A stretch of 64,000 nt of DNA from contig CAMIXG010000005.1 of the NCBI GenBank assembly GCA_946402705.1, positions 31,506 to 95,505 of the forward strand. Reading direction: 5' to 3'. Of this stretch, positions 5,322 to 64,000 are shown in pieces. Numbering within the stretch: the first letter of the stretch is position 1; every line of letters starts with the position of its first letter. The stretch comes from an uncultured Tissierellia bacterium (lineage in GTDB: Bacteria; Bacillota; Clostridia; Tissierellales; Tissierellaceae). A program made the position numbers and the translations under genes. The notes under the pieces were generated by a model. The model was not told the origin of the DNA. It worked only from the letters and a program-made list of their open reading frames with translations, and made no database searches.

Positions 5322-5323
5322 TA

Positions 5324-5349
5324 AAAAGCTCACTTATGTGGGCTTTTTA
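5324..5349 (+). terminator. Rho-independent terminator after clpX
   Basis: The stem aaaagctcac / gtgggctttt has a ttat loop and a T-run. It overlaps the track's upstream extension of lon. Confidence 0.7.
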
Positions 5350-5379
5350 TTTACAAAAAATATAGTGGTGGGTGATATC

Positions 5380-24345: not shown

Positions 24346-24472
24346 GAGATGACGCAAGTTGTCTCTTTTAATTTGCCTAGATAAATAAAATTATAACTAT
24401 TTATTTGATAGACTTTAAAGTAAAATTATGTTAATTTATCTTATAGATTAAAATAAAAATAGGGGGATGCTC

Positions 24473-25831
24473 ATGAGAGGAAGAGATTTGACAGAAGGAG
24501 AAATAATACCTTCATTGGTAAAGTTAGCCATCCCAATAATGGCCACTTCACTTATAAATATGCTATATAACCTAACTGATATGATGTGGCTTGGGCAGTA
24601 TAGTAAACTTGCAGTAGCTGCTGCTGGGACGGTTGCCTATTTTACATCCTTGGCAGTTGGGATAATACTCATAGTTCAAACTGGGACTAGTATAGGTGTA
24701 GCTCAAGCTTATGGTAGAAAGGACTATGAGTCAGTTGGGGAATATATTTCAAATGGATTAAAGCTAAATTTGATTTTTGCACTAATCTATTGTTTAGGAC
24801 TCTTTGTATTTAGAAATCAGTTAATAGGATTTTATAAAATAGAGAACCCAACAGTTACTAAGTATGCAGTAGATTATTTAGGAATAATAGCAATAGGACT
24901 TATATTTCAGTTTTTTAATCCAGTTTTTTCATCTATATTTAATGCTATGGGAAATAGTGTTACACCGTTTAGGGTAAACTCCATAGGACTTATAACAAAT
25001 ATAATCCTAGATCCAATCTTAATATTTGGTATAGGACCTTTTCCAGAAATGGGAATAAAGGGAGCTGCTATAGCCACTTCTTTGGCTCAAATAGTAGTAC
25101 TTGCATTATTTGTATATGAGTTTAAAAAATCAGATATAAGAATTGGAAAACTAAATTTTAAGGAAAAATTTGATAGAATAATAATAAAAAATACAGTAGC
25201 CATAGGACTTCCAAGATTTTTAGAGGCTACACTTAGAACCTTAATAGCCATGAGTATGCTTAAGATATTGGCTACTTGGGGAGAAAATGCCATAGCAGTA
25301 TTGTCTATAGGTGTTCAAGTAGAGTCCTTATCTTGGATGACGGCAACAGGGTTTTCAACTGCCCTATCATCATTTTCAGGTCAGAATTATGGTGTTGGAA
25401 ATATAGACAGAGTCAGGGAAGGTTATAAGGCAGGACTTAAACTTGTAACTGTCATAGGAGTTATAGCCACCATAATATTTGCAGTATTTGGGAGTGCTAT
25501 ATTTAGTATCTTTATACCAGGAGATCCAGAGGCCATAGCTATGGGGGCAAATTATTTGAAAATACTTGCCTACTCACAAATATTTATGTGCTTAGAAATA
25601 GCAACGATGGGTGCCTTTAATGGAGTTGGAAAATCAGTTACACCATCAGTTATATCAGTTGGATTTAATGTAACAAGGATACCTATATCCCTAGTATTAT
25701 CAAAAACAGCTATGGGACTTGACGGTATTTGGTGGAGTATGAGTGGAACAAGTATTTGCAAGGGGATACTAACAGTTCCTTTGTTTATGAGAACTTTAAA
25801 TAAGTTAGAGGTAAAAACAAAAAAAATCTAG
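24473..25831 (+). CDS. MATE-family efflux transporter, paralog 1
   Basis: 12-TM profile with an N-terminal LAIPIMATSLINMLYNLTDMMWLGQ motif. ATG 24473 is preferred on RBS spacing and on alignment with paralog 2. Confidence 0.88.
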   Translation: MRGRDLTEGEIIPSLVKLAIPIMATSLINMLYNLTDMMWLGQYSKLAVAAAGTVAYFTSLAVGIILIVQTGTSIGVAQAYGRKDYESVGEYISNGLKLNLIFALIYCLGLFVFRNQLIGFYKIENPTVTKYAVDYLGIIAIGLIFQFFNPVFSSIFNAMGNSVTPFRVNSIGLITNIILDPILIFGIGPFPEMGIKGAAIATSLAQIVVLALFVYEFKKSDIRIGKLNFKEKFDRIIIKNTVAIGLPRFLEATLRTLIAMSMLKILATWGENAIAVLSIGVQVESLSWMTATGFSTALSSFSGQNYGVGNIDRVREGYKAGLKLVTVIGVIATIIFAVFGSAIFSIFIPGDPEAIAMGANYLKILAYSQIFMCLEIATMGAFNGVGKSVTPSVISVGFNVTRIPISLVLSKTAMGLDGIWWSMSGTSICKGILTVPLFMRTLNKLEVKTKKI

Positions 25832-25863
25832 TGAAATTACCTTAAATATTAAAGGAGCTGCTT

Positions 25864-27228
25864 ATGAGAGGGAAGAATTTAACAGAAGGAGATATAATTC
25901 CATCTTTGATAAGATTAGCCATTCCAATAATGGCTACTTCGCTTATAAATATGTTGTATAATTTGACAGATATGATGTGGCTTGGTCAGTATAGTAAACT
26001 TGCAGTGGCAGCTGCTGGAACAGTTGCCTTTTTCTCATCACTTGCAGTTGGAATAATATCCATAGTCCAAACTGGAACTAGTGTTGGTGTAGCTCAGTCT
26101 TATGGAAGAAGAGACTACTCATCAGTGGGAGAATACATTTCAAATGGATTAAAGCTAAATCTGATTTTTGCAGTAAGCTATTGCTTAGGACTTTTTATAT
26201 TTAGAAATCAATTAATAGATTTTTATAAAATAGGAAATCCTCTAGTTGTAAAACAGGCTGTTGACTATTTGAAGATAATTTCTATAGGGCTTTTGTTTCA
26301 GTTTTTTAATCCGGTTTTTTCTTCCATATTTAATGCTATGGGAAATAGTATTAGCCCTTTTAGGGTCAATGCCCTTGGACTTGTTACAAATATAATCTTA
26401 GATCCAATTTTAATATTTGGATTAGGACCTTTTCCTGAACTTGGTATAAAAGGGGCTGCTATAGCCACTTCACTGGCTCAGATAGTAGTTTTTATATTAT
26501 TTATATATGAATTTAAAAAATCTGATATAGGAATTGGAAAATTAAACTTTAAAGAAAAATTTGATAGGATAATTATAAAAACAACTTTTATAATAGGCCT
26601 TCCAAGATTTTTAGAGGCCACACTTAGAACCTTAATAGCTATGGGAATGCATAAAATTTTAGCTATTTGGGGAGAAAATGCTCTAGCAGTTTCATCTATA
26701 GGAATTCAAATAGAATCCTTATCTTGGATGACTGCCCTTGGTTTTTCAACAGCCCTATCATCTTTTGCGGGGCAAAACTATGGTGTGGGAAATATTGAGA
26801 GAGTGAGAGAGGGTTATAAGGCAGGGCTTAAGATAGTTACTGTTATAGGACTCTTAGCTACTTTGATATTTGCTTTTTTAGGAGAGCCAATATTTAGTAT
26901 TTTCATACCAGGAGATACAGAGGCAATAGCCATGGGGGCAAACTATTTGAGGATACTTGCCTACATTCAAATTTTTATGTGTTATGAAATAGTGACAATG
27001 GGTGCCTTCAATGGGATTGGTAAATCAGCCATACCAGCAGTTATATCTGTTGGATTTAATTTGACTAGGATACCAATAGCTCTTATTTTATCAAATACAG
27101 CCATGGGATTAGATGGAATTTGGTGGAGTATGACTAGTACTGGAATTTGTAAGGGGATAACAACTGTACCCCTATTTTTAAAAACTTTAAATAAATTAGA
27201 AGAAAAACAGAAAAAAAGTATTCCCTAG
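25864..27228 (+). CDS. MATE-family efflux transporter, paralog 2
   Basis: It is collinear with paralog 1 and mostly identical over the full length when aligned by eye. Confidence 0.88.
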   Translation: MRGKNLTEGDIIPSLIRLAIPIMATSLINMLYNLTDMMWLGQYSKLAVAAAGTVAFFSSLAVGIISIVQTGTSVGVAQSYGRRDYSSVGEYISNGLKLNLIFAVSYCLGLFIFRNQLIDFYKIGNPLVVKQAVDYLKIISIGLLFQFFNPVFSSIFNAMGNSISPFRVNALGLVTNIILDPILIFGLGPFPELGIKGAAIATSLAQIVVFILFIYEFKKSDIGIGKLNFKEKFDRIIIKTTFIIGLPRFLEATLRTLIAMGMHKILAIWGENALAVSSIGIQIESLSWMTALGFSTALSSFAGQNYGVGNIERVREGYKAGLKIVTVIGLLATLIFAFLGEPIFSIFIPGDTEAIAMGANYLRILAYIQIFMCYEIVTMGAFNGIGKSAIPAVISVGFNLTRIPIALILSNTAMGLDGIWWSMTSTGICKGITTVPLFLKTLNKLEEKQKKSIP

Positions 27229-27260
27229 AGGAATACTTTTATAATGACAGGAGGAATTTA

Positions 27261-28610
27261 ATGGCTAAGAAAATAAGAGACTTAACACAGGGAGAAATAG
27301 TACCAACATTAGTAAAACTAGCACTACCAATAATGGGAACAGGGCTGTTAAATATGCTCTACAGTTTAGTAGACATAATGTGGCTGGGAAGACTTAGTCG
27401 TGAGTCTTTAGCGGCAGCTGGAACAGCAGGATATTTTGTATGGTTTGCATCTGGAATAATTTTAATCTCTCAAGTAGGAGTTGGGATAGGTGTATCTCAA
27501 TCAGTTGGAAGAGAAGATAGGGAGGGGCTTAGACTCTACATATCAAATGCCTTGAAGCTGAATTTAACTTTGGCAATAATTTATTCCACATTTTTATTTA
27601 CTTTTAGGCATAAATTAATATCATTTTTTAATATAGCAGATGAGGCGGTTGTAACTCAAGCAGTTATCTACCTTCAAATAATAGCATTTGGGCTTTTATT
27701 TCAGTTTTTCAATCCTGTTATATCAGCTATATTTAATGCAACAGGAAACAGTGTAACACCATTTTTGATAAATGGAGTGGGGCTTGTTACTAACTTAGTT
27801 CTTGACCCAATTTTAATATTTGGACTTGGACCTTTTCCTGCAATGGGAATAAAGGGGGCAGCAATAGCTACTTCATTTGCCCAATTTACAGTGCTTAGTT
27901 TATTTATAGTTATGATATTTAGAAATAAAGAGCTTTTTAGAGGGGTAAAAATATTTGAAAAACCAGATATGACTTATATAAAAAAGGTTGCTAAACTTGG
28001 AGTACCAGGATTTTTACAAAATTCTATGCACTCAGGGATAAGCATGATTATAATAAAGATTTTAGCGACTTGGGGCTCAGCAGCTATAGCAGTTCAAACT
28101 TCAGGAGCTCAAGTGGAATCCATATCTTGGATGACAGCAGAAGGATTTTCATCAGCCCTTGCTGCCTTTGTAGGACAAAACTATGGTGCTAGAAATTATG
28201 ACAGGGTTAGAGAAGGCTTTAAGAAAGGTCTTGTAGTAGTTTCTACAATAGGATTATTTTCAATGCTACTATTTATATTTTTCGGAGAGGCTATATTTGG
28301 AATGTTTATTCCAGGGGATACAGAAGCCATAACTCTAGGAGGGCAATACCTAAAAATATTTGGAGTATCACAGATATTCTTGTGTATGGAAATTGCATCT
28401 ATGGGTGCATTTAATGGTATAGGAAGGCCAATAATACCAGCTACTACTGGTACAATCTTAAATATAGCTAGGATACCAATGGCTCTTATTTTATCAAAAA
28501 CATCATTAGGAGTTTATGGTATCTGGGTAGCAGTTAGTGGATCAGTTATATTAAAAGGACTTATAGGAGCACCACTTTGCATGTATTCTTTAAACCAATT
28601 AAAAGATTAA
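27261..28610 (+). CDS. MATE-family efflux transporter, paralog 3 (more diverged)
   Basis: Same architecture and shared blocks (FQFFNPV, GIKGAAIATS, QNYGA), but clearly more divergent than paralogs 1 and 2. Confidence 0.88.
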   Translation: MAKKIRDLTQGEIVPTLVKLALPIMGTGLLNMLYSLVDIMWLGRLSRESLAAAGTAGYFVWFASGIILISQVGVGIGVSQSVGREDREGLRLYISNALKLNLTLAIIYSTFLFTFRHKLISFFNIADEAVVTQAVIYLQIIAFGLLFQFFNPVISAIFNATGNSVTPFLINGVGLVTNLVLDPILIFGLGPFPAMGIKGAAIATSFAQFTVLSLFIVMIFRNKELFRGVKIFEKPDMTYIKKVAKLGVPGFLQNSMHSGISMIIIKILATWGSAAIAVQTSGAQVESISWMTAEGFSSALAAFVGQNYGARNYDRVREGFKKGLVVVSTIGLFSMLLFIFFGEAIFGMFIPGDTEAITLGGQYLKIFGVSQIFLCMEIASMGAFNGIGRPIIPATTGTILNIARIPMALILSKTSLGVYGIWVAVSGSVILKGLIGAPLCMYSLNQLKD

Positions 28611-35554: not shown

Positions 35555-36571
35555 ATGGATTTAAATAAAGTAGTAAAAAATATATGCAGGGAAATAGGTG
35601 TGGAAATTTGTGGCATTACAAATTATGAAAGTGTAGATAAAACAAGGTTAGACTGGTTAGAGACTAGAAAAACTTTAGGGTATGATACTGAGTTTGAAGA
35701 AGATGATTTAAAAAGAAGGCTGGATAAAAATGCAGTTTTAGAAAATGCTAACTCTATAATAGTGATTGGATTACCCTATAACACAGGTGAGTATGATTTG
35801 GATATTTATCCAAGGGGGAAGCTATCTAGATCATCATATGGAGAAGATTATCATATAGTTGTGAAAGAGAGACTTGAAAAATTAAAGGATGAACTTTTAA
35901 AATTTGTAGAATTTGATTATAAAATATATGCTGACACAGGACCACTAATAGATAGAGAATTAGCCTATCAGGCAGGACTTGGGTACTATGGAAAGAATTG
36001 TTCAATAATAAATGAAGAGTATGGTTCATTTATATTTATTGGATACATGCTTACAAATTTAAATATAAGAGAAGATGAGCAAGTGGATAACCAGTGTGGG
36101 TCATGCACCTTATGTTTAGAGGCTTGTCCTACTAAGGCCTTATATGAACCATATAGGGTAAATGCCAAAAAATGTGTATCCTATCTAACACAGTCAAAAG
36201 AGATAGATGAAAACCTAATAGAAAAAATAGGCTCCAGAGTTTATGGCTGTGATACTTGCCAAGATATATGCCCTAAAAATAGGTATGCCAAAAAATCTAA
36301 GGAAAAAAGTTTTATACCAGTAAAGACAAGGGGCTATATAGATATAGTAGAGTTTTTAAAATTTAGTAATAAAGAATTTAAAGAAAAATATGGAAGTATG
36401 GCAGGAAGCTGGAGGGGAAAAAATACCTTAAAAAGAAATTGTATAATAGTCCTTGAAAATTTAAAAGATGATAAGTTTCTTGATTTAATAGATAAGGAAA
36501 CTAAAAATGAAAGTGATTTAATATCTAAAAGAGCCAAGAAGGCAATTGAAAAAATAGAAGGTGAGATATGA
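35555..36571 (+). CDS. queG: tRNA epoxyqueuosine reductase QueG (cobalamin- and 4Fe-4S-dependent)
   Basis: GLGYYGKNCSIINEEYGSFIF plus two ferredoxin clusters, CGSCTLCLEACP and CDTCQDICP, and C-terminal HEAT-like repeats. Confidence 0.88.
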   Translation: MDLNKVVKNICREIGVEICGITNYESVDKTRLDWLETRKTLGYDTEFEEDDLKRRLDKNAVLENANSIIVIGLPYNTGEYDLDIYPRGKLSRSSYGEDYHIVVKERLEKLKDELLKFVEFDYKIYADTGPLIDRELAYQAGLGYYGKNCSIINEEYGSFIFIGYMLTNLNIREDEQVDNQCGSCTLCLEACPTKALYEPYRVNAKKCVSYLTQSKEIDENLIEKIGSRVYGCDTCQDICPKNRYAKKSKEKSFIPVKTRGYIDIVEFLKFSNKEFKEKYGSMAGSWRGKNTLKRNCIIVLENLKDDKFLDLIDKETKNESDLISKRAKKAIEKIEGEI

Positions 36572-37510: not shown

Positions 37511-38416
37511 ATGCTGAAAAAGAGTAAGATTTTAGTAGTTTTAATGTTAGGCTTAGTTTTCTTAACATCCTGTGGAAATAATAAGGGTGGGGTTAGTCAA
37601 AACAAGGAAATAAAAATTGTAGATGATTTTGGAAATAAAGTAGCCCTAGATAAAGAAGTAAAAAAAATAGTTTCACTTAGCCCTAGCACTACAGAGGTTT
37701 TGTTTGCCCTAGGCTTAGATGAGAAAATAGTAGGGGTATCAGACTACTGTGATTATCCAGCAAAGGCACTTGAAAAAGAAAAAATAGGTGGGTTTGCAGA
37801 TGCAAACTTAGAAAAAATAATAGGACTTTCACCAGACTTGGTAGTAAGTGCAGGTGGTGAAAAAAAAGAGGCAAATGAAATCCTAAAAAATGCAAATATA
37901 GAAGTTGCAGTTTTTGACTCTGGCACAATAGAAGAAGTTTATTCTCAAATTGAAAGAATTGGAATACTTACAGGTAGGGAAGATGCAGCTGAAAAGTTAG
38001 TAGGAGATATGAAGAAAAAAGAAGCAGATATAGTTACTAGAGCTAAGGAAATAAAAAACAAGGAAAAAGTATTTTATGAGATTTGGCATGATCCTCTTAC
38101 AACAGCAGGTAAAGGCTCTTTTATGGATGAATTAATCACCTTATCAGGTGGAATCAATATAGCTGGGGATATGGATAAACCATATCCAGAAATAAGTGTT
38201 GAAAAATTAATTGAAGAAAATCCATCTATCTACCTAACAACAGATGGAGGAGTTGGAAAAACTGTAGAGACTATAAAAACTAGGGAAGGCTATGCAAATA
38301 TAGAAGCTGTAAAAAATGATAGAGTATATATATTAGATGCTAATATAGTCTCAAGACCAGGACCAAGAATAGTGGATGCACTTGAGATCGTATATGAGAT
38401 TATAAGTGAAAAGTAG
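37511..38416 (+). CDS. BtuF-like (Peripla_BP_2) ABC substrate-binding lipoprotein, cobalamin/iron-siderophore class, with no adjacent permease or ATPase
   Basis: Lipobox LTSCG, KIVSLSPSTTEVLFALGLDEKIVGVSDYCDYP and NPSIYL..RPGPRIVDAL motifs typical of BtuF-type proteins. The start lies 9 nt after nth. Confidence 0.75.
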   Translation: MLKKSKILVVLMLGLVFLTSCGNNKGGVSQNKEIKIVDDFGNKVALDKEVKKIVSLSPSTTEVLFALGLDEKIVGVSDYCDYPAKALEKEKIGGFADANLEKIIGLSPDLVVSAGGEKKEANEILKNANIEVAVFDSGTIEEVYSQIERIGILTGREDAAEKLVGDMKKKEADIVTRAKEIKNKEKVFYEIWHDPLTTAGKGSFMDELITLSGGINIAGDMDKPYPEISVEKLIEENPSIYLTTDGGVGKTVETIKTREGYANIEAVKNDRVYILDANIVSRPGPRIVDALEIVYEIISEK

Positions 38417-51735: not shown

Positions 51736-54577
<2,842 letters not shown>

Positions 54578-54643: not shown

Positions 54644-54671
54644 TTGACAAAATTCTAAAAGATGATATAAT
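54644..54671 (+). promoter_or_regulatory. Strong SigA-type promoter driving the riboswitch leader
   Basis: TTGACA (54644-54649), a 16-nt spacer, and extended -10 TGaTATAAT (54663-54671). Confidence 0.7.
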
Positions 54672-54714
54672 TTCCTTGTAATAAAACTTAATAAGTATTT
54701 TGGTTTCTTTTAAA

Positions 54715-54850
54715 ACTAAGAATTAAAAGAGAATTGTGTTAGAATCACAAACGGACCGGCCACTGTATTTGGTTAGGACTTTTCATTACCACTGGGAAAC
54801 TGGGAAGGGAAAAGTATTTAAGCCATAAGTCAGGAGAACTGCCAAGATAT
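54715..54850 (+). promoter_or_regulatory. Cobalamin (B12) riboswitch aptamer
   Basis: The conserved core is readable directly: AGAGAAttGtGttaGAATCacaaaCGGacCGGCCACTGTA (54727-54767), a second ACCACTGGGAAacTGGGAAGG (54788-54808), and the B12 box AGTCAGGAGAACTGCC (54828-54843). The boundaries are approximate. Confidence 0.85.
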
Positions 54851-54944
54851 ATTTTAAATTACCTTCCAGGATAGAGGTCAATATTATGTGATTAAATATT
54901 TTTGAGTATCATTATGTATTAATAATGCTCTTTTATAATACATA

Positions 54945-54977
54945 AGCACCTACCTGAGAAGGTAGGTGCTTTTTTTT
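54945..54977 (+). terminator. Riboswitch expression-platform terminator
   Basis: A perfect 10-bp GC-rich stem agcacctacc / ggtaggtgct with a tgagaa loop and a T7 run, 25 nt upstream of the giant ORF start. A candidate antiterminator strand lies at 54859-54870. Confidence 0.85.
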
Positions 54978-55002
54978 GTAAAAAATAGAGGGAGATGACA
55001 AA

Positions 55003-55095
55003 ATGAGAGATAGGTTAAAGAGGGTACTAAGCCTAGTTTTAGTATTTGCAATTATTACAGGAAACTTATTATCTTTGCAAAATATATCGTTTGCA
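55003..55095 (+). other. Sec (type I) signal peptide of the giant protein
   Basis: MRDRLKRVLSLVLVFAIITGNLLSLQNISFA|KE: a basic n-region, a hydrophobic core and an SFA cleavage motif. There is no lipobox Cys. Confidence 0.8.
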
Positions 55096-58000
55096 AAAGA
55101 GAATATAGTTTTAAGTCAAGGTGAGGAGGGTTTTATATTTGATAAATCTGATAATAGAATTATTGGATATAGTGGTGAGATTCCTTCAAAGCTGGAAATA
55201 CCAAGTGAAATTGATGGAGTGAGTGTAAAACATATTGGTGAAGAAGATAAACTAGACCAAGATTTTATACAAAAAGGTATAGAAGAATTAGTTTTACCAG
55301 AAGGCATTGAATCAATTGAGCAAAGAGTATTTTTTGGTAATAAAATAGAAAAATTAGAATTACCAAAAACTTTAAAGTTAATAAGAGGAGGAGCTTTTAA
55401 AAATAATCTTATAAGGGAAGTAAACTTTCCAGAAGATATAGAAGAAATAAGGGCTGCTGCTTTTGAAAATAATAAAATAGATACTTTAAACATACCATCA
55501 AATATTGAGAAAATAGGAGATGATGCTTTTAAGGATAATTTTTTAGAAGACATAGTAATACCTAATAATATAAGAGAAATAGGTGGGGGAGCTTTTGCCT
55601 TAAATCCTATAAATACAGTTGACTTAGGTAGGGTGGAAATAATAGGAGGAAGTGCATTTCACACAACTAATTTAAAAGAAATCAGTCTTCCAGATACTCT
55701 AAAAGAGATAGGTATATCTGCCTTTGGAAACACAAGGATAGAAGAATGCATAATACCTAAAAATGTTGAAAAATTAGGAAAAGATGCATTTTTTAGCAAG
55801 GATATAGATGTTTATACAAAAATATACTTAGAAGATGAAAAAAATGAACATAGATTGACATCAGGTGTTGGAACTGTTTTAAATCCAGTTGAAGTTGAAG
55901 TTATAAATACTTCAGTTGATGGGGAGCTTAGCAGGGAAAAAATTGTTGGACAAAAATCAGATGGAAGTTATATAACTGATTATAATAGAAAAAATAAAGA
56001 GTTTGACTTTTTTAGTAAAGAAGCCGAAGTTGGTATAAAACCAAAAGTTATAGAAGGTTTTTTAACACCTAGATCAAAAACTCTAAAATTAGTTAATAGC
56101 ACAGAAACTATAGAGTTTAAATATGAAAAAGGGCAAGAAGTAGAAGAAAAAGAAATAGAAGTGCTTTTAATAGACCACGATTATAAAAACTTTATAAAGG
56201 TTGGAGATGTCTATAAGTTAACTTTAAAAGATAAAAATCCTGTTATCTTAGATGTATTAAAAGAATTAGAAGAAAAACATAATGTGAGAATAAAAACAGA
56301 AGAAGGAAGTTATGGAGAATATATAACACAAATAGGAGATTTAAAGGCTTCTAAGGCAAAATCTGTTATGTATAATATAAATGATGAAAAAGCAGGTCTT
56401 GGAGCTTCTTCTCAGGATGTCCATGATGGAGATAAGATACTGTTCTTTATGGGAAACTCCATGAATGGATATAATGGTCCAAAATGGGAAGAATTCACAG
56501 AAGAAGAAAATAATGAATTAGATCTAAGTAAACTAATAGATGAGGCATTGACATGGTCATTAGTTAACAATAGTAAATTTGAATTTTCAGGAGCAACATC
56601 TTTAATGGTTGCAGGTAAAGACCTAAAAGAAATGCCAGAAAGAATTGAAACTCATTTTGCTTTTACTTATAAGGCTAAACCATTAAATACTATAAGAAAT
56701 TATCTTTTAGGAAATAACATGGAATACCTAGAAGAAGTTAAAAAATATGATTTCAATCAAAAATTAAATAATATAAATGCAATAGAACCACATATATATT
56801 CTATGATAGCCCTTAATATGATAGGTGAAGATTATGATAAGCAACTTGCTAGTGATAATCTAGTTAAGTATATATTAAGTGGAGATATAAAAGATAATAA
56901 TATGGGAGATGCCATAGCAGCAATAGTTGATAGTGGGGCTGAAGTAAATAAAAAAGAGTTATTAGATAATGTAAATAAAAGATTGTCTAATCCACCAGCT
57001 AATATTAGATACTATTCATCACTTTTAGAGGCCTTAATCAATCTAGGGGAAAAAGTAGATGCTTCAAGTATTGAAAAACTTTCAGAATATAAAAAAGATG
57101 GTGGATATGCAACTACACCACTTATGGGTTATAAAAAAGATGGAGAAGAATTAATAGCCCTAAAGTTATTCTTAACAGTTGATAATAAGGAAAACACTTT
57201 TAGGACTGCTGGAAAGAAAGTTAATGAAGGTCCATCAGAAAAAAATGACTATAAAATTGAAATAGATAAATCAAAATTTGAATTTAAAGAATTTGATGAA
57301 ATAAAAATAGCTGCAAAAACTTATTTAAATGGACAGGAAAAAGATTTACCTTATGATCTAGTATCAGAAAATGCAAAAATTGTATCCATAGCTAGGGATA
57401 ATAAGTTAGTAGTTAATTCTCATGGAACAGTTACTATAAAGGCTATCTTAAAAGAAGATAAGAGTGCTTTTGATGAAATAGAACTAGTGATTGAAAAAGT
57501 TGAGGCAAAAGCAGGCCAAGGAAATATAAATGATTTTATAGATGCCATATCAATCTACTATAATAGGGAACACTTTAAGAACAATGGCGGTAAGTTAAAT
57601 GCCTTTGAATATGCAACATTTGAAAAAGTTGGATTATCATCAAGTAGATGGGAAGTTGAAAAAGATTATAAACCTAGCTATGATGAGAACTTAAAGTATG
57701 TTGGAAATAAGGCAAGACAAGTAGAGGTAATGCTTGCAACAGGAAGAAACCCAAGAGATTATAAGGGTAGAGACCTAATAGAAGAAATAACAACAGTAAT
57801 AAATACTGGAAAATCAGATGGTAGAGATTTTGATTTTGCTGCGTATCCTTATTTACTAGGAGTAGTAGCAGTGAATAACTACAATGAAATATATCCTTCT
57901 AATAAGGCTAATTACAATAATGAATTTGTGCTTAATATGATAAGAAAAGCCCAACAAGAAAATGGCGGCTTAATAGAAAGAAGTATAGAAAATGGAATAG

Positions 58001-61000
58001 CACCTAGAAATACAGCCTTAGCCTTAGAAGTTGTGGCTAAAGTAAATGGCGGAGATGATATCAAAACCAAAATATTGTCATACTTTGAGTCGATACAAGA
58101 GGATAATGGTGGCTTCTTTGAAAAAGCTTATATAACAAATTATAATGCTGATATAGTTAAAGCTCTTGCTATAGCAGGTGAAGACTTAACTAGTTCAAAA
58201 TGGACTAAGGGAGAATATAATCCTATAGAATCTATATTCTATCTATATAGAAATAATAATTCATTTAAAGATTTTGTTGGAGAAGATATGTCTACTCTAA
58301 ACAATCCAAATGAGAGAGATTTAGATTGTAAAGTTGCTACACAAGCAGCACTAGAAGCTCTAATTGAAATAAGAAAAAATAATGGAGACTATCTAGTTAA
58401 AACTGCTAAAATATCAGAAACAAAAGAGATAGTAGAACAAGAAGTAGAAATAAATACATCAATTATTGTCCTAGATAAAGAAGGCAAATTTGAAGTAAAA
58501 AATATTCCTTCAAAATTAAAAGTGAATAATAAGAAGCAAACAGCAGGATTGACAGCACTTGGAGCGCTTCAAGCAACAACAAATAATATAAAAATGAACT
58601 ATGGATTTGTTGAAGAAATAGAAGGTATAAGAAACTCTGGAAATAGTGGATGGATGTATAGCATAAATGGTGAAATACCAAGACTTGCTGCAGCTTATAC
58701 AGAGGTAAAAGAAGATGATAATATACTATGGTTCTATGTTCCAGAAGAATTATTAAAAGATAAAACATTAGAAGAAATAATGCCTAAATGGGAGGAATTA
58801 ACTGGAGATAATAGTAGTGAAATCCTTGAAGAGATTGCAAAATCTATACCAAGAAATCTAAAACAACCAATGGATTCTGATGTAGATAAAAATGTGTTAG
58901 AAGTTTTAGATAAAATAATAAAAGATAAGGGATATTCTAATATAGAATTAAAATTAGTGTCAGTAGATAAAAATGATGAGTTTGCATCTATTGATGAAGT
59001 AACAGGAGATATTAAATATTTCTATAAACACCCAAGTGAAGTAAAGGGATTATATAATCAACAAAGACAATGTAAAATAGAGCTAAAACTTGGTAATGCT
59101 ACTAAGATAATAGATGCAAATCCAAGTATTCTTTGGGACAAGGCAAAGCTTAGAAAAGTTATAGATGAAGAAATCATGGAAGATTTAGATTCTATGATAA
59201 AAGGAGAAAATATTTCTCTAAGTCAGTTTAAAGTTGATTCAGAAGTTAAGGATAAGATTGGTTCTAAGGGTTATGATTATTTAGAAATCCAATATAAATT
59301 AGAAGAAAATGCAGGATTAAAATTTAAAAAAGGCGGCTACGAGTATATAAATGGAAAAATGGTATTAACTCCAAATAAATTAGTAGTTAAAGATGTAAAA
59401 GAGCCAATAAGTACAAAACTAAAAGTGGTACTTTCTACAGTACAAGGTAGCATAGAAGTAGATACTAAGGAATATAATATAACTGTTGTTCCTAAGGACT
59501 ATGCTGGTAAAACTTTGGAAGAAGAGATGAAAGAAAAACTGGAAAAACATTACACAGAAGATAAGTTTAAATCAGCAGTAGATGGTAGTGAAATAGATTT
59601 AGATAATATATCTGATGATATAAAAATACCAACTCCAAAAGAAACTGAAATAGAAGACTATGATAACTATAAATACTTTATGACAAGTAGTGATAATGGT
59701 TTAATAAAACCATTTGAAACTAAGAATGCTGGAAAAGTAGTTGTTTATAGACCACTTCCAGGAGAGTCAGCTGGAAAGGCAACTCTTACTATAAATATGG
59801 AAGATAAGAAAACTGGAACAGTAGTTAGTAAAAATTTAAAAGAGATAACAGTACTTCCATTAACTCAAGAAGAGATAGATAAAGAAATAGAATTGATGGA
59901 GAAAGTAAAATCTAGTTATTTTGATTTGATAAAGGGTGAAAATATATCAAAAGATGAAATAACTAAAGATTTGAAATGGTTTAGAGAAGTAAATCTTGGT
60001 AAAGATGGACTTACTTGGAATACTCATATAAAAGATGATGTGAATATGGGAATAACACCAGATGCTTTAGAAGGCTGGTATGATACAGAACAATGGAGAT
60101 TGTTTAGAGCTAGTAATCCAGAGATAATAACTCATGAAAATTTACTAGTAACTAGACCAGAAAAAGATACAAAAGTTAAAATAGATAGTATCTTAACATC
60201 AGTTATATATGGAAAATATGCAGAAAAATATCCTAATAATGAAGATTTTAAAAAGCTTTATAAACAAGCTGTTGAAGTTGAAGTTACTGTATTGGGAACA
60301 GAAGCAAACAGTTCTAAAATAGATTTAGATAAGGAAATAAACTTCCTAAAATCTGTATTTGAAGCCTATATGGAAGAAGACAGTAATGGAAATACAGGAA
60401 ATGCTAAGCTTTCCTTAACTGGAACTGGTGCAGCAAAACTTGCAGGCATGGATATGAATAAGATACAAAAAAATATTTATATAGACAAGGATAATAAAAC
60501 TTCTTATCAATTATCTCAATCTATAATCACCCTAATAGGTGCAGATTTAGATCCTACTAATTATCAAACTAGAAACTTAGTAGAAGAACTTATAAAATCT
60601 CAGCAACTAGAAGGTGATGAAAAAGGAGCCTTTATAACCGACTTTAGAGGTATTGGAGATGACTTAAATAGCATAGAAGTTCAAATAAGAAGTATAATAG
60701 CTCTTGATATGGCAGGTGCAAACTATAATAAGCAAGCAGCTGTAGAGAAATTGATAGCTATGTATGAAAACAAGGAAGATAATAAAACTTATAAAGAAAT
60801 AGAAACAGAAGGATATATGATTCTTGCTCTATCTAAACATAAAGAGCTTGGACAAACTACTATAGATTCCATAGTAAATAACCTATCATCTCTTCAAAAA
60901 GATAATGGTGGTTACCTTGTAAAGGGTATAGGTGATGGCGCTACTGTAGGAATGTCAAGAGTTGTTCAAGGTTTAGTGGCAAATGGTATAAATCCTTTGA

Positions 61001-63216
61001 CAGATGAAAGATTTATAAAAAATGAAAATACTATAGTTGATGCAATTTTGAGAAATAAAGTTGAAAAACCTGAACTTAAAAAATCAGGTTATGCTAAAAA
61101 AGCCAATGATAACTTTAATTTAGCAGCAGGAACACACATAGTATTTGGTGCTTTAATGGATGTAAAAAATGAAGAGTCAATGTTCCACAAACTATCTAAC
61201 AAAGAAGAAACTAGCACACTGAAAGTAAATATGTCAGTTGTGAAGTTTAATCTTGATGGAAAATATGAAATAGTATCTAATCCTATGGAAATCGAATTAG
61301 ATCAAAATAAATTCGCTAATAAGGCAACAGTTTTAGATGCCTTAAAAGTAAATGGATTAGATTATGAGTTAAAAGGTAATATGGTTACTAAAATAGCTGG
61401 AATTGGTGAAACTGAAGAGGAAGGTTTTAAGTGGTCAGGTTGGATGTATAACTTAAATGGACAAGCTCCAGAAAAAGATGGCTTACAACTTATGGCAGAC
61501 CAAGCTTTATTAAAAGATGGAGACAATATAGTTTGGGGTAGAATATTCGAGTTTGGCAGGGATACACTTCCAACTATGAATGAAATAAAATCACAAGAAA
61601 AAGAAAAACTTATAAGTTTAAATATTTCATCAAAATTAGAATTAAATAAAGAATTTGAAATTGTAGCAAGGGATGAAAATGGAAATATAATAGATAATAG
61701 TGAAGTATTATATTTAATATCTGATGCACAAGTAGCTGAAATCAAAGATAATAAACTTTTAACTAAAAAGGCTGGAGAATTTACTTTAACAGCTAGTTTA
61801 AAATCAGATAAAAATATTAAAACAAGTTTAAAAATACAAGTAGAAGAAGCAAATAGTGAAAAAGAAAATCTAAAAGAATATGTAGCTAGTATGAGAGCTG
61901 CATATACAAACAAAGATAAATTTACTTTTAGAGAAGCAATGGGTTATAGATATACTAGTGAGAATTTAGAAAAAGATTTAAAAATAATTTCTAATAAAAT
62001 AGAACTTAGAGAAGCAGAAAGTGCAAATAATATGGCTACTAACATAATCTCTATAATTGCAGCAGGCGAAAACCCATATAATTATAAGGGTGTTAATTAT
62101 GTAGATATGCTACAAAAAACTCAAAAGGATAATGGTAAGTTTATTTTCAGTAATGATGATGACTATGCTACAACTCAAGCTTTTGCAGTTATGGCACTTG
62201 ATATGGCAAAGGCTGAATATAAAGAAAATACAATTGAAATGTTATTAGCTTATCAAAACCAAGATGGAAGTTTTTCAAGTTGGAAAGATATAGATACAGT
62301 AGCAATGACATTAACAGCTTTTGCAAACCATTTAAATAATGAAAAAGTACAGGAGAAAATGGTAAAATCTATAGAGTTTTTAGAAAACAAAAATAAGCTA
62401 GAGGCTGATAATCCATATACATTATCCGCACTTGTTCAAGGTTTAATAGCAGTTGAAGAAGATCTTGATGCTGGAAAGTGGGATAAAGATGGAAAAAAAT
62501 TAGTTGATAGATTAATCTTTAGTCATAAGGAAACTTTAGCTACTATGGTTAAACCAGAGAATGCCTTAATGGTAAATGAACAAGTATTCATAGCCTTAAC
62601 AGATGCTGAAAAAGGAAAATCTATGTTTAAAGAAATAAAAGTAAACAACAATGCAATAACAGAAATCCAAATTAAAGATTTAAATATTGGAAAATTAGTA
62701 GAAGGTGAAGAAGTACAATTAGAGGCTATAGCCAAAGACTCTAAAGGAAATCTTGTTACAGGAGCAGAGTTTATTTGGGAAGTCTTAAATGGAGATATTG
62801 CAAGTATTGATTCAAATGGAAAACTATTTGCTAAAAAATCAGGTGAAGTAAATGTTATTGTTAAGTTAAAAGATAGCGATATGAAAGCTGAGAAACTTAT
62901 AGAGATAGGTAAAAAAGAGTTTGATGTTGAAGTTACAAAACCAGTATTAAACTTAAATCAAGAAGCTAAAGCCATCGCTAAGGTGAAAAACTTAACTAAT
63001 CAGAAAAAAGAAGTAACTTTGATAATTGCTTTAGTAAATACAGATACAGATGAAATAGTTAGTTATTCAAAAGTTAGAAAAGTATTAAAAGCAGGAGAAG
63101 TAACAGAGTTAGAATCAGGATTATTGGTTCCTAAGACTGGTAAATATCAAATAAAGACTTTCTTATGGGATAGTTTAGAAAATAGAAATCCTATTAAAGT
63201 AAATAAGGCAGCATAA
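55003..63216 (+). CDS. Giant secreted multidomain protein (2,737 aa): BspA-type LRR, three DUF4430 (transcobalamin beta-like) domains, three or four prenyltransferase-like alpha/alpha toroids and three Big_2 domains. Putative extracellular corrinoid-binding protein.
   Basis: A single uninterrupted ORF with RBS gagggag 8 nt upstream of the ATG and a Sec signal peptide. Domain motifs are listed in the sub-features. A cobalamin riboswitch lies directly upstream. Confidence 0.9.
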   Translation: MRDRLKRVLSLVLVFAIITGNLLSLQNISFAKENIVLSQGEEGFIFDKSDNRIIGYSGEIPSKLEIPSEIDGVSVKHIGEEDKLDQDFIQKGIEELVLPEGIESIEQRVFFGNKIEKLELPKTLKLIRGGAFKNNLIREVNFPEDIEEIRAAAFENNKIDTLNIPSNIEKIGDDAFKDNFLEDIVIPNNIREIGGGAFALNPINTVDLGRVEIIGGSAFHTTNLKEISLPDTLKEIGISAFGNTRIEECIIPKNVEKLGKDAFFSKDIDVYTKIYLEDEKNEHRLTSGVGTVLNPVEVEVINTSVDGELSREKIVGQKSDGSYITDYNRKNKEFDFFSKEAEVGIKPKVIEGFLTPRSKTLKLVNSTETIEFKYEKGQEVEEKEIEVLLIDHDYKNFIKVGDVYKLTLKDKNPVILDVLKELEEKHNVRIKTEEGSYGEYITQIGDLKASKAKSVMYNINDEKAGLGASSQDVHDGDKILFFMGNSMNGYNGPKWEEFTEEENNELDLSKLIDEALTWSLVNNSKFEFSGATSLMVAGKDLKEMPERIETHFAFTYKAKPLNTIRNYLLGNNMEYLEEVKKYDFNQKLNNINAIEPHIYSMIALNMIGEDYDKQLASDNLVKYILSGDIKDNNMGDAIAAIVDSGAEVNKKELLDNVNKRLSNPPANIRYYSSLLEALINLGEKVDASSIEKLSEYKKDGGYATTPLMGYKKDGEELIALKLFLTVDNKENTFRTAGKKVNEGPSEKNDYKIEIDKSKFEFKEFDEIKIAAKTYLNGQEKDLPYDLVSENAKIVSIARDNKLVVNSHGTVTIKAILKEDKSAFDEIELVIEKVEAKAGQGNINDFIDAISIYYNREHFKNNGGKLNAFEYATFEKVGLSSSRWEVEKDYKPSYDENLKYVGNKARQVEVMLATGRNPRDYKGRDLIEEITTVINTGKSDGRDFDFAAYPYLLGVVAVNNYNEIYPSNKANYNNEFVLNMIRKAQQENGGLIERSIENGIAPRNTALALEVVAKVNGGDDIKTKILSYFESIQEDNGGFFEKAYITNYNADIVKALAIAGEDLTSSKWTKGEYNPIESIFYLYRNNNSFKDFVGEDMSTLNNPNERDLDCKVATQAALEALIEIRKNNGDYLVKTAKISETKEIVEQEVEINTSIIVLDKEGKFEVKNIPSKLKVNNKKQTAGLTALGALQATTNNIKMNYGFVEEIEGIRNSGNSGWMYSINGEIPRLAAAYTEVKEDDNILWFYVPEELLKDKTLEEIMPKWEELTGDNSSEILEEIAKSIPRNLKQPMDSDVDKNVLEVLDKIIKDKGYSNIELKLVSVDKNDEFASIDEVTGDIKYFYKHPSEVKGLYNQQRQCKIELKLGNATKIIDANPSILWDKAKLRKVIDEEIMEDLDSMIKGENISLSQFKVDSEVKDKIGSKGYDYLEIQYKLEENAGLKFKKGGYEYINGKMVLTPNKLVVKDVKEPISTKLKVVLSTVQGSIEVDTKEYNITVVPKDYAGKTLEEEMKEKLEKHYTEDKFKSAVDGSEIDLDNISDDIKIPTPKETEIEDYDNYKYFMTSSDNGLIKPFETKNAGKVVVYRPLPGESAGKATLTINMEDKKTGTVVSKNLKEITVLPLTQEEIDKEIELMEKVKSSYFDLIKGENISKDEITKDLKWFREVNLGKDGLTWNTHIKDDVNMGITPDALEGWYDTEQWRLFRASNPEIITHENLLVTRPEKDTKVKIDSILTSVIYGKYAEKYPNNEDFKKLYKQAVEVEVTVLGTEANSSKIDLDKEINFLKSVFEAYMEEDSNGNTGNAKLSLTGTGAAKLAGMDMNKIQKNIYIDKDNKTSYQLSQSIITLIGADLDPTNYQTRNLVEELIKSQQLEGDEKGAFITDFRGIGDDLNSIEVQIRSIIALDMAGANYNKQAAVEKLIAMYENKEDNKTYKEIETEGYMILALSKHKELGQTTIDSIVNNLSSLQKDNGGYLVKGIGDGATVGMSRVVQGLVANGINPLTDERFIKNENTIVDAILRNKVEKPELKKSGYAKKANDNFNLAAGTHIVFGALMDVKNEESMFHKLSNKEETSTLKVNMSVVKFNLDGKYEIVSNPMEIELDQNKFANKATVLDALKVNGLDYELKGNMVTKIAGIGETEEEGFKWSGWMYNLNGQAPEKDGLQLMADQALLKDGDNIVWGRIFEFGRDTLPTMNEIKSQEKEKLISLNISSKLELNKEFEIVARDENGNIIDNSEVLYLISDAQVAEIKDNKLLTKKAGEFTLTASLKSDKNIKTSLKIQVEEANSEKENLKEYVASMRAAYTNKDKFTFREAMGYRYTSENLEKDLKIISNKIELREAESANNMATNIISIIAAGENPYNYKGVNYVDMLQKTQKDNGKFIFSNDDDYATTQAFAVMALDMAKAEYKENTIEMLLAYQNQDGSFSSWKDIDTVAMTLTAFANHLNNEKVQEKMVKSIEFLENKNKLEADNPYTLSALVQGLIAVEEDLDAGKWDKDGKKLVDRLIFSHKETLATMVKPENALMVNEQVFIALTDAEKGKSMFKEIKVNNNAITEIQIKDLNIGKLVEGEEVQLEAIAKDSKGNLVTGAEFIWEVLNGDIASIDSNGKLFAKKSGEVNVIVKLKDSDMKAEKLIEIGKKEFDVEVTKPVLNLNQEAKAIAKVKNLTNQKKEVTLIIALVNTDTDEIVSYSKVRKVLKAGEVTELESGLLVPKTGKYQIKTFLWDSLENRNPIKVNKAA
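55120..55800 (+). other. BspA-type leucine-rich repeat (LRR_5-like) region, about 9 repeats
   Basis: Repeating units of about 23 aa of the form L.IP..I..IG..AF.(N/D)..I, for example LNIPSNIEKIGDDAFKDNFLEDIVIPNNIREIGGGAFALN. Confidence 0.8.
56152..56451 (+). other. DUF4430-like domain 1 (degenerate)
   Basis: EIEVLLID..VILDVLKELEEKHNVRI..GEYITQIG..SVMYNINDEKAGLGASSQDVHDGDKILFFM follows the DUF4430 pattern, but the GW of the GWMY motif is replaced by SV. Confidence 0.6.
56515..57180 (+). other. Helical region, possible partial alpha/alpha toroid
   Basis: It is predicted helix-rich by eye, with one KKDGGYA motif resembling a toroid repeat. It is shorter than the other toroids. Confidence 0.35.
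57250..57501 (+). other. Big_2 (bacterial Ig-like group 2) domain 1
   Basis: The pattern ..IKIAAKTYLNG....YDLVSENAKIVSIARDNKLVVNSHGTVTIKAILKED..FDEIELVI matches the Big_2 consensus (S.n..vatV...G.v.a...G.a.i.a). Confidence 0.7.
57514..58392 (+). other. Alpha/alpha toroid 1 (prenyltransferase/terpene-cyclase-like, 6-hairpin clan)
   Basis: Repeated Q..NGG motifs (QQENGGLIE, QEDNGGFFE) spaced about 45-50 aa apart in a helix-rich segment of about 290 aa. Confidence 0.6.
58444..58740 (+). other. DUF4430 domain 2
   Basis: TAGLTALGALQATTNNIKMNYGFVEEIEGIRNSGNSGWMYSINGEIPRLAAAYTEVKEDDNILWFYV carries the canonical GWMY.(I/V)NG ... D.I.W signature. Confidence 0.8.
58741..60297 (+). other. Central region of about four helix-plus-Ig-like units of unknown family
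   Basis: The recurrent unit is a short acidic helix followed by a beta-rich segment ending in motifs such as KEYNITVVP, LKEITVLP and AVEVEVTVLG. The last unit (ITKDLKW..ASNPEIITHENLLVTRPEKDTKVKIDSIL) resembles surface-protein Ig-like spacer domains. Confidence 0.4.
60310..61185 (+). other. Alpha/alpha toroid 2
   Basis: A helix-rich segment of about 290 aa containing LQKDNGGYLV and paired helical hairpins. It is organised like toroid 1 and is followed directly by a DUF4430 domain. Confidence 0.55.
61216..61548 (+). other. DUF4430 domain 3
   Basis: ATVLDALKVNGLDYELKGNMVTKIAGIGE..GFKWSGWMYNLNGQAPEKDGLQLMADQALLKDGDNIVWGRIF carries the canonical signature. Confidence 0.8.
61609..61848 (+). other. 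Big_2 domain 2
   Basis: EFEIVARDENGNIIDNSEVLYLISDAQVAEIKDNKLLTKKAGEFTLTASLKSD..TSLKIQV. Confidence 0.7.
61861..62628 (+). other. Alpha/alpha toroid 3 (no DUF4430 partner in cis)
   Basis: TQKDNGKFIF and YQNQDGSFSS repeats within a helix-rich segment of about 255 aa. Confidence 0.55.
62656..62910 (+). other. Big_2 domain 3
   Basis: EEVQLEAIAKDSKGNLVTGAEFIWEVLNGDIASIDSNGKLFAKKSGEVNVIVKLKD. Confidence 0.7.
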
Positions 63217-63224
63217 GAAATATT

Positions 63225-63260
63225 AGTATAAACCTTTTCTGTAAAGTTAAGGTTTATACT
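63225..63260 (+). other. Perfect 12-bp stem-loop between the giant gene and the next gene (no T-tail)
   Basis: agtataaacctt / aaggtttatact with a 12-nt loop, followed by ctaattat. It is probably an mRNA-stabilising or partial-termination element rather than a full terminator. Confidence 0.6.
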
Positions 63261-63291
63261 CTAATTATACTAAATAGGAGGAAATGAAATT

Positions 63292-64000
63292 ATGAGAAAG
63301 TTAAATAAAAATAAAATATTAGTACTAGCCCTATCTTTCATTATGATATTTTCTAACTTAGTTGGTGCTGCAAGTGCCATAAGTGGTAGAAATATTATTA
63401 AGGTTAAGGTTGAGAAAAAAGATCCTGTAACTCTAATGGTGGAAAGTGGAAATAGAATTGTAGCCATAGACGAACAAATACCAGATGATAGTGGTTATGT
63501 AAAGTTTAGAGTAAATCTTCCAAATGAAATAAGTTTAGATGATGTTAAAATAAAAACCACAGATGGAAGAATAGATAGTTCAAAAATAGAAGTGGAGAAA
63601 ATAAAAGATGATGAAGAAAAACCAGTAGATCCAGATCCAGAGCCAAAAGAGAAAACAGTTAGCCTAAATATAGATGGATATAAGGGCACAATATTAAGCA
63701 AGAGAAATATAGAAGTAAAGGCAGGAGAATCTGTTTTGGATGTAACACTTAGATTATTAGATGCCAATGGTATTAAGTATCAGGTGAAAAATGGATATGT
63801 TGTAAGTATAGATGGACAGGCAGAATTTGATAAGGGTAGTGGTAGTGGCTGGATGTATTCTGTAGACGGGCAATATCCTAACAAGGGAGCAGATTATTTA
63901 AGAGCCAAAGACTATAAGCGAATTGACTGGAAATATACTTATGATTTAGGTAAGGACATAGGTGCTGGAAGTAGCTGGAAAAAAATAGATGATAAATCTG
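63292..64000 (+). CDS. Secreted DUF4430-domain protein, N-terminal 236 aa (3' end lies outside the window)
   Basis: Hand translation from ATG 63292 (RBS aggagga 9 nt upstream) gives MRKLNKNKILVLALSFIMIFSNLVGAASA|ISG... The frame stays open to the window end. A DUF4430 domain lies at 63652-63942 (..GESVLDVTLRLLDANGIKYQVKNGYVVSIDGQAEFDKGSGSGWMYSVDGQ..RIDWKYTY). It is absent from the ORF track because it has no stop in the window. Confidence 0.85.
   Translation, partial: MRKLNKNKILVLALSFIMIFSNLVGAASAISGRNIIKVKVEKKDPVTLMVESGNRIVAIDEQIPDDSGYVKFRVNLPNEISLDDVKIKTTDGRIDSSKIEVEKIKDDEEKPVDPDPEPKEKTVSLNIDGYKGTILSKRNIEVKAGESVLDVTLRLLDANGIKYQVKNGYVVSIDGQAEFDKGSGSGWMYSVDGQYPNKGADYLRAKDYKRIDWKYTYDLGKDIGAGSSWKKIDDKS

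Follow-up and report, generated by a model that had tools for sequence, protein, structure and literature searches.

The present analysis concerns positions 54644 to 64000 of a 64-kb stretch of DNA from an uncultured Tissierellia bacterium (the window, meaning the whole stretch of 64,000 nucleotides). This region comprises a cobalamin (vitamin B12) riboswitch, a gene for a 2,737-amino acid (aa) secreted protein built from alpha/alpha-toroid and DUF4430 regions (hereafter the giant protein), and the visible part of a second gene, open reading frame 2 (ORF2), for a further secreted DUF4430 protein. The features that define the locus are the following, with toroid-bearing parts of the giant protein labelled T1, M2, M3 and T4.

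54644-54671, + strand: sigma-70 promoter, TTGACA-16-TATAAT with extended -10 TG (12/12 matches, the top site of the region)
54684-54860, + strand: cobalamin riboswitch aptamer, RF00174 (93.9 bits, E 4.7e-22, model positions 1-189 of 189)
54860-54870, + strand: candidate antiterminator segment UACCUUCCAGG, read from the sequence as complementary to the terminator loop and 3' arm
54944-54978, + strand: intrinsic terminator of the riboswitch platform (12-bp stem, 4-nucleotide (nt) loop, T run)
55003-63216, + strand: uninterrupted ORF encoding the secreted multi-module protein of 2,737 aa
55003-55095, + strand: signal peptide, aa 1-31, with cleavage between SFA and KEN read from the sequence
56248-56445, + strand: DUF4430 no. 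1, divergent, aa 416-481 (Pfam E 9e-10)
56485-57237, + strand: T1, aa 495-745, a helical domain resembling a degenerate toroid (aligned to the M2 profile by hhalign)
57514-58452, + strand: M2 toroid, aa 838-1150 (two Q..NGG repeats; all-helical in the AlphaFold2 model)
58546-58737, + strand: M2 DUF4430/SLBB beta-grasp domain, aa 1182-1245 (Pfam E 1.5e-13; GWMYSING motif)
60313-61257, + strand: M3 toroid, aa 1771-2085 (phmmer match to M2; 96 family proteins match M3)
61324-61536, + strand: M3 DUF4430, aa 2108-2178 (Pfam E 6.7e-10; GWMYNLNG motif)
61900-62637, + strand: T4, aa 2300-2545, fourth of the toroids and lacking a trailing DUF4430 (matches the M3 toroid)
63226-63259, + strand: perfect 11-bp inverted repeat, GTATAAACCTT, 12 nt, AAGGTTTATAC, read from the sequence and lacking a T run
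63292-64000, + strand: ORF2, a secreted DUF4430 protein, visible to aa 236 and truncated at the window end

The leader directly adjoins a glycolysis operon (gap-pgk-tpi-gpmI-eno, with eno last at 53288-54577) and therefore no B12 gene intervenes. RF00174 is the sole Rfam family matched in the 64 kb, and its covariance-model score exceeds the curated gathering score of 31.5 bits across the whole aptamer. The riboswitch is of class-I type with an expression platform that closes with an intrinsic terminator, starting 84 nt 3' of the aptamer; the hairpin proper (54944-54971) contains 6 GC pairs in 12 bp and has a local fold z-score of -5.0. A ribosome binding site (GAGGGAG) lies ~8 nt 5' of the ATG at 55003. 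The giant gene can be taken as real, conserved and under selection, because an identical protein is on record (NCBI/ENA) and a 2,723-aa homologue with 67% identity occurs in other samples (locus L001). Residues 5-30 form its sole strongly hydrophobic segment, and inspection of the protein sequence found neither a C-terminal transmembrane segment nor an LPXTG motif; the protein is therefore exported, and anchored neither covalently nor in the membrane. Behind it, ORF2 also has a signal peptide and a DUF4430 domain at aa 145-216 (63724-63939, E 1.7e-17). A preliminary description of this DNA had proposed a consensus promoter, a cobalamin riboswitch and a terminator directly upstream of the giant ORF with no classical B12 gene between them, a Sec signal peptide on the product, DUF4430 membership, and a second secreted DUF4430 protein downstream, and each of these points is borne out by the analysis.

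The preliminary description further held that the giant protein contains repeated toroid regions, each followed by a DUF4430 domain, which stands in part. The protein has four alpha/alpha-toroid regions and three DUF4430 domains, and the toroid-then-DUF4430 order is found only in M2 (aa 838-1245) and M3 (aa 1771-2178). T1 is instead preceded by DUF4430 no. 1 and T4 has no DUF4430 after it; since only two modules run toroid then DUF4430, "each followed by" is inexact. All three copies exceed the Pfam cut-off for DUF4430 (PF14478, 23.8 bits) with 39.3, 51.4 and 39.7 bits for copies 1 to 3 (E 5.6e-31 for the whole giant protein), as does ORF2 with 64.1 bits, so that the threshold is passed four times. 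The core motif of the family, GW(M/I)Y.(V/I/L)N, is recognisable in copies 2 and 3 and, by reading of the sequence, in ORF2 (GWMYSVDG) but not in copy 1, in which the corresponding SVMYNIND has Val for the family-invariant Trp of GW(M/I)Y.

M2 (aa 830-1250) and M3 (aa 1765-2190) are homologous end to end (phmmer i-E 3.6e-10), and the M3 toroid also matches aa 2328-2543, within T4 (phmmer i-E 3e-8). T1 aligns with the M2 toroid by hhalign over 169 columns (probability 90%, E 1.5e-6), and a search of T1 for Q..DGG repeats found none. Self-BLAST of the giant protein at E 1e-3 returned no internal repeats, and phmmer and hhalign were needed to relate the modules to one another. Judged from its sequence, the reversed module formed by DUF4430 no. 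1 and T1 may be degenerate, a non-binding structural relic. Cysteine is scarce, with three residues in 2,737 aa and one across the four toroid regions; individual toroids have 0-1 Cys and 1-3 His, and because these residues are nearly absent a zinc site is unlikely. No DxDD motif is present in any of the four toroids.

The fold of M2 was compared with those of the eukaryotic B12 carriers, in which DUF4430 forms the C-terminal part of the vertebrate TCN proteins (PMC4350170; PMC1796856). Word-indexed homologue searches proved nearly blind to the toroid/DUF4430 family (5, 3 and 1 matches), and an alignment search of the JGI metagenomes with M2 gave no match. An exhaustive HMMER search with M2 recovered 436 representatives at E <=1e-3, including 19 at E <=1e-30 that span the whole module in proteins of 500-2,800 aa. 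An AlphaFold2 (AF2) model of aa 830-1250, built on an alignment of 18 of these 19 whole-module homologues, has a predicted local distance difference test score (pLDDT) of 87.8 and a predicted template modelling score of 0.77, and shows a beta-rich domain after a helical toroid. Across the family, residues Q77, Q155, E231, W238, Y301, W388 and N393, numbered within the 830-1250 segment, are invariant. In a Foldseek search of the PDB, ranks 1-15 for this model are all haptocorrin, transcobalamin or intrinsic factor (E 1e-9 to 3e-7, 440-470 columns), and the next class, prenyltransferases and squalene-hopene cyclases, appears from E 1.8e-4. The AlphaFold and Foldseek check that had been suggested for these segments thus places M2 in the two-domain carrier fold of toroid then beta-grasp. 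Transcobalamin, intrinsic factor and haptocorrin (PF01122 + PF14478; PDB 2BB5, 2PMV, 4KKI) are likewise secreted with a toroid preceding DUF4430, whereas the giant protein is multi-module, has leucine-rich repeat (LRR) and immunoglobulin (Ig)-like spacer regions, and is riboswitch-controlled.

A cobalamin riboswitch also lies 5' of toroid/DUF4430 genes in nine related loci from different organisms or samples, among them L001, L003, L004, L005, L006, L009, L010 and L011, and the co-occurrence that the preliminary description had asked to be surveyed is therefore a recurrent one. All relatives retrieved from this lineage have such a riboswitch 5' of their toroid/DUF4430 genes. One RF00174 copy each is listed for L003, L006, L009 and L010, two each for L004 and L005, and four for L011. 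The contents of the related loci are summarised below.

L001 (the 67% homologue): aptamer 3' end, ACCTTCCAGG segment, terminator
L003 (a Tissierellales metagenome-assembled genome): riboswitch, then genes for a 1,454-aa product, a caspase-like protein, a pair of DUF4430 proteins and a protein with SLH and toroid regions
L004: the same synteny of eno, riboswitch and giant gene; 1,545-aa, 2,037-aa LRR_5-bearing and 734-aa DUF4430+3xSLH proteins; a second riboswitch after these
L005 (Clostridium lundense): two riboswitches
L006: riboswitch, with genes for a 1,885-aa product, a DUF4430 protein and an SLH protein behind it
L009 (Clostridium aestuarii) and L010 (Clostridium sp. MSJ-11), each: riboswitch, two DUF4430 proteins, CbiQ, a fused ATP-binding cassette (ABC) ATPase, an energy-coupling factor (ECF) S component and a giant toroid/DUF4430 protein
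L011: four riboswitches, all inside 28 kb, surrounding ECF and DUF4430 genes
L012: a cluster of ECF, DUF4430 and toroid genes

The ACCTTCCAGG segment is identical in the window, L001 and L003; in the latter two this post-aptamer segment is kept together with a hairpin and T run at the matching position, and UACCUUCCAGG is a putative antiterminator on grounds of its complementarity. Genes for ECF T, fused A-A' and S components share clusters with toroid/DUF4430 genes in L009, L010, L011 and L012, the last of which has no cobalamin riboswitch. The S component of L009, the one relative tested, has ECF-CbrT (6FNP_A) as its sole PDB sequence match (E 2e-10), a transporter for which import of cobalamin and cobinamide has been shown biochemically (PMC5997447). 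No transporter gene was found within the available stretches of L003 and L004. Partner genes encode SLH or CWB2 wall-binding domains in L003, L004, L005, L006 and L010. ORF2 is 38.5% identical over aa 1-241 (E 5e-40) to the 734-aa DUF4430+3xSLH protein that occupies the same operon position in L004 and has its three SLH repeats from ~aa 554; since the visible part of ORF2 aligns over its full length with the N-terminus of that protein, ORF2 is probably a wall-tethered partner. In L001 the counterpart of ORF2 has no SLH domain in its 471 visible aa. Searches of GTDB species genomes and JGI metagenomes with ORF2 found no match, and a protein search found a single relative (56%).

Several of these loci have further features of their own. 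L003 carries, at 4669-5844, a caspase-like Peptidase_C14 gene (E 3.8e-22) inside its riboswitch-controlled toroid/DUF4430 operon. The record that contains L004 (CABMKH010000004.1, 235358-256551; 33% GC) bears the name of an actinobacterium, Varibaculum timonense; the enolases of L004 and of the window share 79% identity, and the title is probably mislabelled or the contig a contaminant. At positions 532-2798 of L010, CbiK and two tandem CobA/BtuR adenosyltransferase genes adjoin the riboswitch/DUF4430/ECF/giant operon, a neighbourhood that fits corrinoid salvage. Each full-length riboswitch in L011 (2780-23113) heads its own ECF or secreted-DUF4430 unit, making this an unusually dense B12 regulon island.

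We propose that the locus is probably a corrinoid-repressed operon for extracellular B12 capture, a reading that is well supported, by inference alone. Binding of a corrinoid to the aptamer would allow the terminator to form and transcription to stop, and under corrinoid scarcity the conserved ACCUUCCAGG would pair with the 3' arm of the terminator, permitting read-through. The exported modules would then clamp a corrinoid between their toroid and beta-grasp parts in the manner of the eukaryotic carriers, with Ig-like spacers and the LRR region keeping the modules off the wall and with ORF2 and/or other partners tethering the assembly. Captured corrinoid would be handed to a membrane importer encoded elsewhere, outside the window. 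The chief uncertainty within the capture reading is whether it serves delivery to uptake or competitive hoarding and piracy.

A number of observations weigh against this reading. The global TM-score between M2 and the carriers is 0.29-0.38, with a root-mean-square deviation of 12-14 A and a sequence identity of 10-14%; domain types and order are as in the carriers, and the relative orientation or details of the domains in the model differ. The M2 sequence profile reaches squalene-hopene cyclase repeats (E 1e-5) and prenyltransferase repeats in the PDB but not transcobalamin, so that the link of M2 to transcobalamin emerges from structure comparison and not from the profile search. None of the toroids belongs to the Cobalamin_bind family PF01122 by the Pfam cut-off of 25 bits: the best is T4 with 20.8 bits (E 2e-4; Prenyltrans at E 5e-3), and M2 and M3 have no match. 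M2 and M3 thus share the domain pair, its order and DUF4430 with the eukaryotic carriers, yet are not PF01122 members; among relatives, protein 3 of L005 exceeds the cut-off with 26.3 bits. Ligand-OFF control is deduced from the presence of the terminator and is to that extent presumptive. The probable tethering of the system to the wall by ORF2 is drawn from the L004 counterpart only, and the closest ORF2 relative, in L006 (P0158), has no SLH domain, these domains residing there on a separate downstream gene. The 55 kb upstream of the locus contain no gene for an ECF, BtuCD or other B12 importer, the window as a whole has no ECF T or S gene, and the literature searched contains no experimental report of corrinoid binding by bacterial DUF4430/toroid proteins.

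The alternative that survives best overlaps with capture and differs in purpose only. Multivalent modules of very high affinity could serve to sequester or steal corrinoids, hoarding them at the cell surface, denying them to competitors or stripping them from carriers of host or microbial origin, and release would require proteolysis. A single chain with four toroids and three DUF4430 domains, and the absence of an importer gene from the locus, would suit such a role, as would the practically zero off-rates and proteolytic release of the human carriers of this fold (PMC5997447, discussion), the Peptidase_C14 gene among the DUF4430 genes of L003, and the N-terminal BspA-type LRR, which suggests attachment to other cells or to surfaces. 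We nevertheless regard sequestration as unlikely: relatives pair giant proteins with a CbrT-type ECF importer in one operon, which argues for delivery to uptake, and the protease gene occurs in one locus only.

Less probable still is a ligand other than complete cobamides, such as incomplete corrinoids (cobinamide or others), cobalt chelates or a different tetrapyrrole, with the riboswitch tying precursor supply to B12 status. Burroughs et al. left "B12 or its precursors" open and noted an association with CbiO/CbiQ (PMC1796856), CbrT transports cobinamide as well (PMC5997447), and the CbiK and two CobA/BtuR genes beside the Clostridium sp. MSJ-11 operon hint at salvage. Set against this, the S components of the related operons are CbrT-like and of vitamin type rather than CbiM/N metal subunits, the only solved toroid-then-DUF4430 proteins bind complete cobalamin, and hemin is no competitor for ECF-CbrT (PMC5997447).

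We give very little credence to the idea that the giant protein is mainly an adhesin or structural envelope protein, with toroids that bind protein or glycan or are thioester-like, and with incidental regulation by B12. A BspA-type LRR_5 region accompanied by several Ig-like domains, thioester-domain toroids of complement and alpha-2-macroglobulin among the weak matches, and SLH and CWB2 partners typical of envelope proteins are all compatible with it, but it leaves the cobalamin riboswitches 5' of such genes in nine loci, the fusion to DUF4430 and the co-operonic CbrT-type ECF transporters unexplained, and the scarcity of cysteine, with a single residue across the four toroids, also speaks against it. 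That the toroids are extracellular enzymes, either terpenoid cyclase/prenyltransferase-like or six-hairpin glycosidases or lyases, was rejected as next to impossible, because the catalytic motifs (DxDD; Zn-binding Asp/Cys/His) are missing, the profile matches to squalene-hopene cyclase and geranylgeranyl-transferase beta repeats span only the structural Q..DGG repeat, the top structural matches are non-enzymatic B12 carriers ahead of the epimerases and phosphorylases that Foldseek lists at E ~1e-3, and the riboswitch and ECF context points elsewhere.

Under extracellular capture, the preferred reading, the closest precedent is a computational one. Burroughs, Balaji, Iyer and Aravind (2007; Biol Direct 2:4, PMC1796856) defined the SLBB superfamily from transcobalamin's C-terminal domain and described secreted bacterial SLBB proteins fused to alpha/alpha toroids in low-GC Gram-positives, often accompanied by Ig-type domains and by operon neighbours comprising CbiO/CbiQ genes and a further SLBB paralogue. 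These proteins were predicted to scavenge B12 or B12 precursors, and such bacteria were put forward as the source from which animals obtained transcobalamin; riboswitches are mentioned 0 times in that paper. The present locus has the signal peptide, the SLBB domain fused to an alpha/alpha toroid (N- or C-terminally), the second paralogous extracellular SLBB gene (ORF2) and the Ig-type domains of this class, and the CbiO/CbiQ (ECF) genes that are not found in the window are present in relatives L009-L012. It differs in the much larger size of the giant protein, with its four toroids, three DUF4430 domains and N-terminal BspA LRR, in the location of the visible locus directly behind eno with no transporter gene, and in the riboswitch control seen in nine related loci. 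The novelty claimed in the preliminary description is accordingly overstated as regards the concept: no experimental characterisation of bacterial DUF4430/SLBB/transcobalamin-like proteins or of riboswitch-controlled surface proteins was found in the literature searched, whereas the idea itself is a rediscovery, because secreted toroid+SLBB B12 scavengers had already been predicted in 2007. The giant protein is a new and unusually large member of a predicted-only class, and what is new here, besides that member, is the fold-level confirmation of one module, the riboswitch association at nine loci and the link to a CbrT homologue.

Other known systems resemble this one in part. To our knowledge, BtuG and BtuH are the only well-studied surface B12 capture proteins; they occur in Bacteroides and have a different fold. 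They are functional analogues only, in that they provide high-affinity corrinoid capture at the surface within riboswitch-controlled uptake loci and feed a membrane transporter. They differ in being of unrelated fold (a beta-propeller in BtuG), lipid-anchored on the outer membrane, associated with the TonB-dependent BtuB, and single-module each. The Isd/NEAT haem relay of Gram-positive cocci is analogous in concept, with scarcity-induced, wall-anchored multi-domain receptors that pass a tetrapyrrole to an ABC importer; it differs in its NEAT fold, its haem ligand, its Fur regulator and its sortase anchoring. The toroids of squalene-hopene cyclase and of the prenyltransferase beta-subunit (PF13243, PF00432) belong to the same toroid superfamily, share the Q..(D/N)GG(F/W) repeats and come nearest among PDB sequences in the profile search, but the giant protein has no DxDD or zinc-ligand motifs, is extracellular, has DUF4430 as a fusion partner and is part of a B12 regulon. 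The characterised uptake systems BtuCDF, ECF-CbrT and BacA are membrane transporters (PMC5997447). Of these, ECF-CbrT (L. delbrueckii; 6FNP; PMC5997447) has its counterpart in the C. aestuarii giant-protein operon, which encodes a CbrT homologue, ECF T and a fused ATPase; it differs in being a transporter and not a capture protein, in having no counterpart in the window, and in having been studied without an extracellular partner.

On balance we favour, by a modest degree, a broader proposal in which Tissierellales- and Clostridium-type anaerobes deploy wall-tethered, starvation-made multivalent "fishing lines", each with two to four corrinoid-clamping modules, that feed CbrT-type ECF or other importers. 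These would be the Gram-positive counterpart of BtuG/BtuH and living relatives of the bacterial stock that has been proposed as the origin of animal transcobalamin. A bolder extension, by analogy, is that corrinoid binding might be so tight that release would need a dedicated protease, for example the product of the caspase-like gene in L003. Extracellular corrinoid competition by Gram-positive anaerobes is poorly known. If the modules do bind corrinoids, bacteria would for the first time offer homologues of the human B12 carriers that are tractable by experiment; the modules would also put to the test the 2007 proposal that animal transcobalamin came from Firmicutes, and would account for a recurrent, unannotated part of the B12 riboswitch regulon. 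Single modules of ~420 aa have confident folds and are therefore ready-made constructs for binding or structural work. The concept will not surprise specialists, and the case is now specific enough for direct testing of single modules.

The remaining regions of the giant protein are the following, with U1 and U2 denoting the two segments between M2 and M3.

55120-55872, + strand: BspA-type LRR_5 region, aa ~40-290 (Pfam E 2.2e-47; LRR surface proteins in the PDB at E 3e-21)
57238-57507, + strand: aa 746-835, probably an Ig-like spacer (with conservation in P0009, P0010 and P0013; weakly resembles the protein's own Big_1 region)
58750-59499, + strand: U1, aa 1250-1499 (conserved; homologues confined to the giant-protein family)
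59500-60312, + strand: U2, aa 1500-1770, a tandem Ig/cadherin-like beta-sandwich (AF2 pLDDT 82)
61651-61860, + strand: Big_1-like Ig domain, aa 2217-2286 (Pfam matches below threshold)
62695-62880, + strand: Big_2 Ig-like domain, aa 2565-2626 (Pfam 30 bits against a cut-off of 22.8)
62920-63213, + strand: C-terminal beta domain, aa 2640-2737 (common to 32 family proteins; no LPXTG or transmembrane segment)

The Ig-like label of aa 746-835 is tentative because its Pfam Ig-like matches are sub-threshold (E 0.05-0.06), and U1 has no Pfam match. U2 is strongly conserved, and its model matches cadherin EC1-2 and Ig domains from an arabinanase and the nuclear pore in Foldseek; the possibility that it is a hidden enzyme (a protease or corrinoid-remodelling domain) was ruled out by this Ig/cadherin-like tandem sandwich, which makes it a spacer. 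The C-terminal beta domain of ~100 aa is found also in the Clostridium giants P0003 and P0004, with a weak match to DUF7490, and could be an attachment or partner-binding domain of otherwise unanchored proteins. The inverted repeat at 63226-63259 sits in the 75-nt spacer from the giant gene to ORF2 and, judging from its form, may stabilise the mRNA or direct its processing as a hairpin, or may act as a weak attenuator through which the two proteins are kept at a given ratio.

No cob or cbi genes are present in the 64-kb window. A QueG epoxyqueuosine reductase is encoded at 35555-36568 (TIGR00276, 316.6 bits against a cut-off of 200), and QueG being a cobalamin-dependent enzyme, the organism therefore uses B12. 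The second gene after it, separated by one for endonuclease III, encodes an orphan class-III binding protein (Peripla_BP_2, 37511-38416), whose BtuF-model score of 118 bits falls short of the 234-bit cut-off. Both genes are situated 17-19 kb upstream of the giant-protein locus and have no riboswitch 5' of them; the BtuF-like protein is a possible corrinoid acceptor. Elsewhere in the window, positions 24467-28610 encode a tandem of three efflux paralogues of the MatE family (454, 454 and 449 aa).

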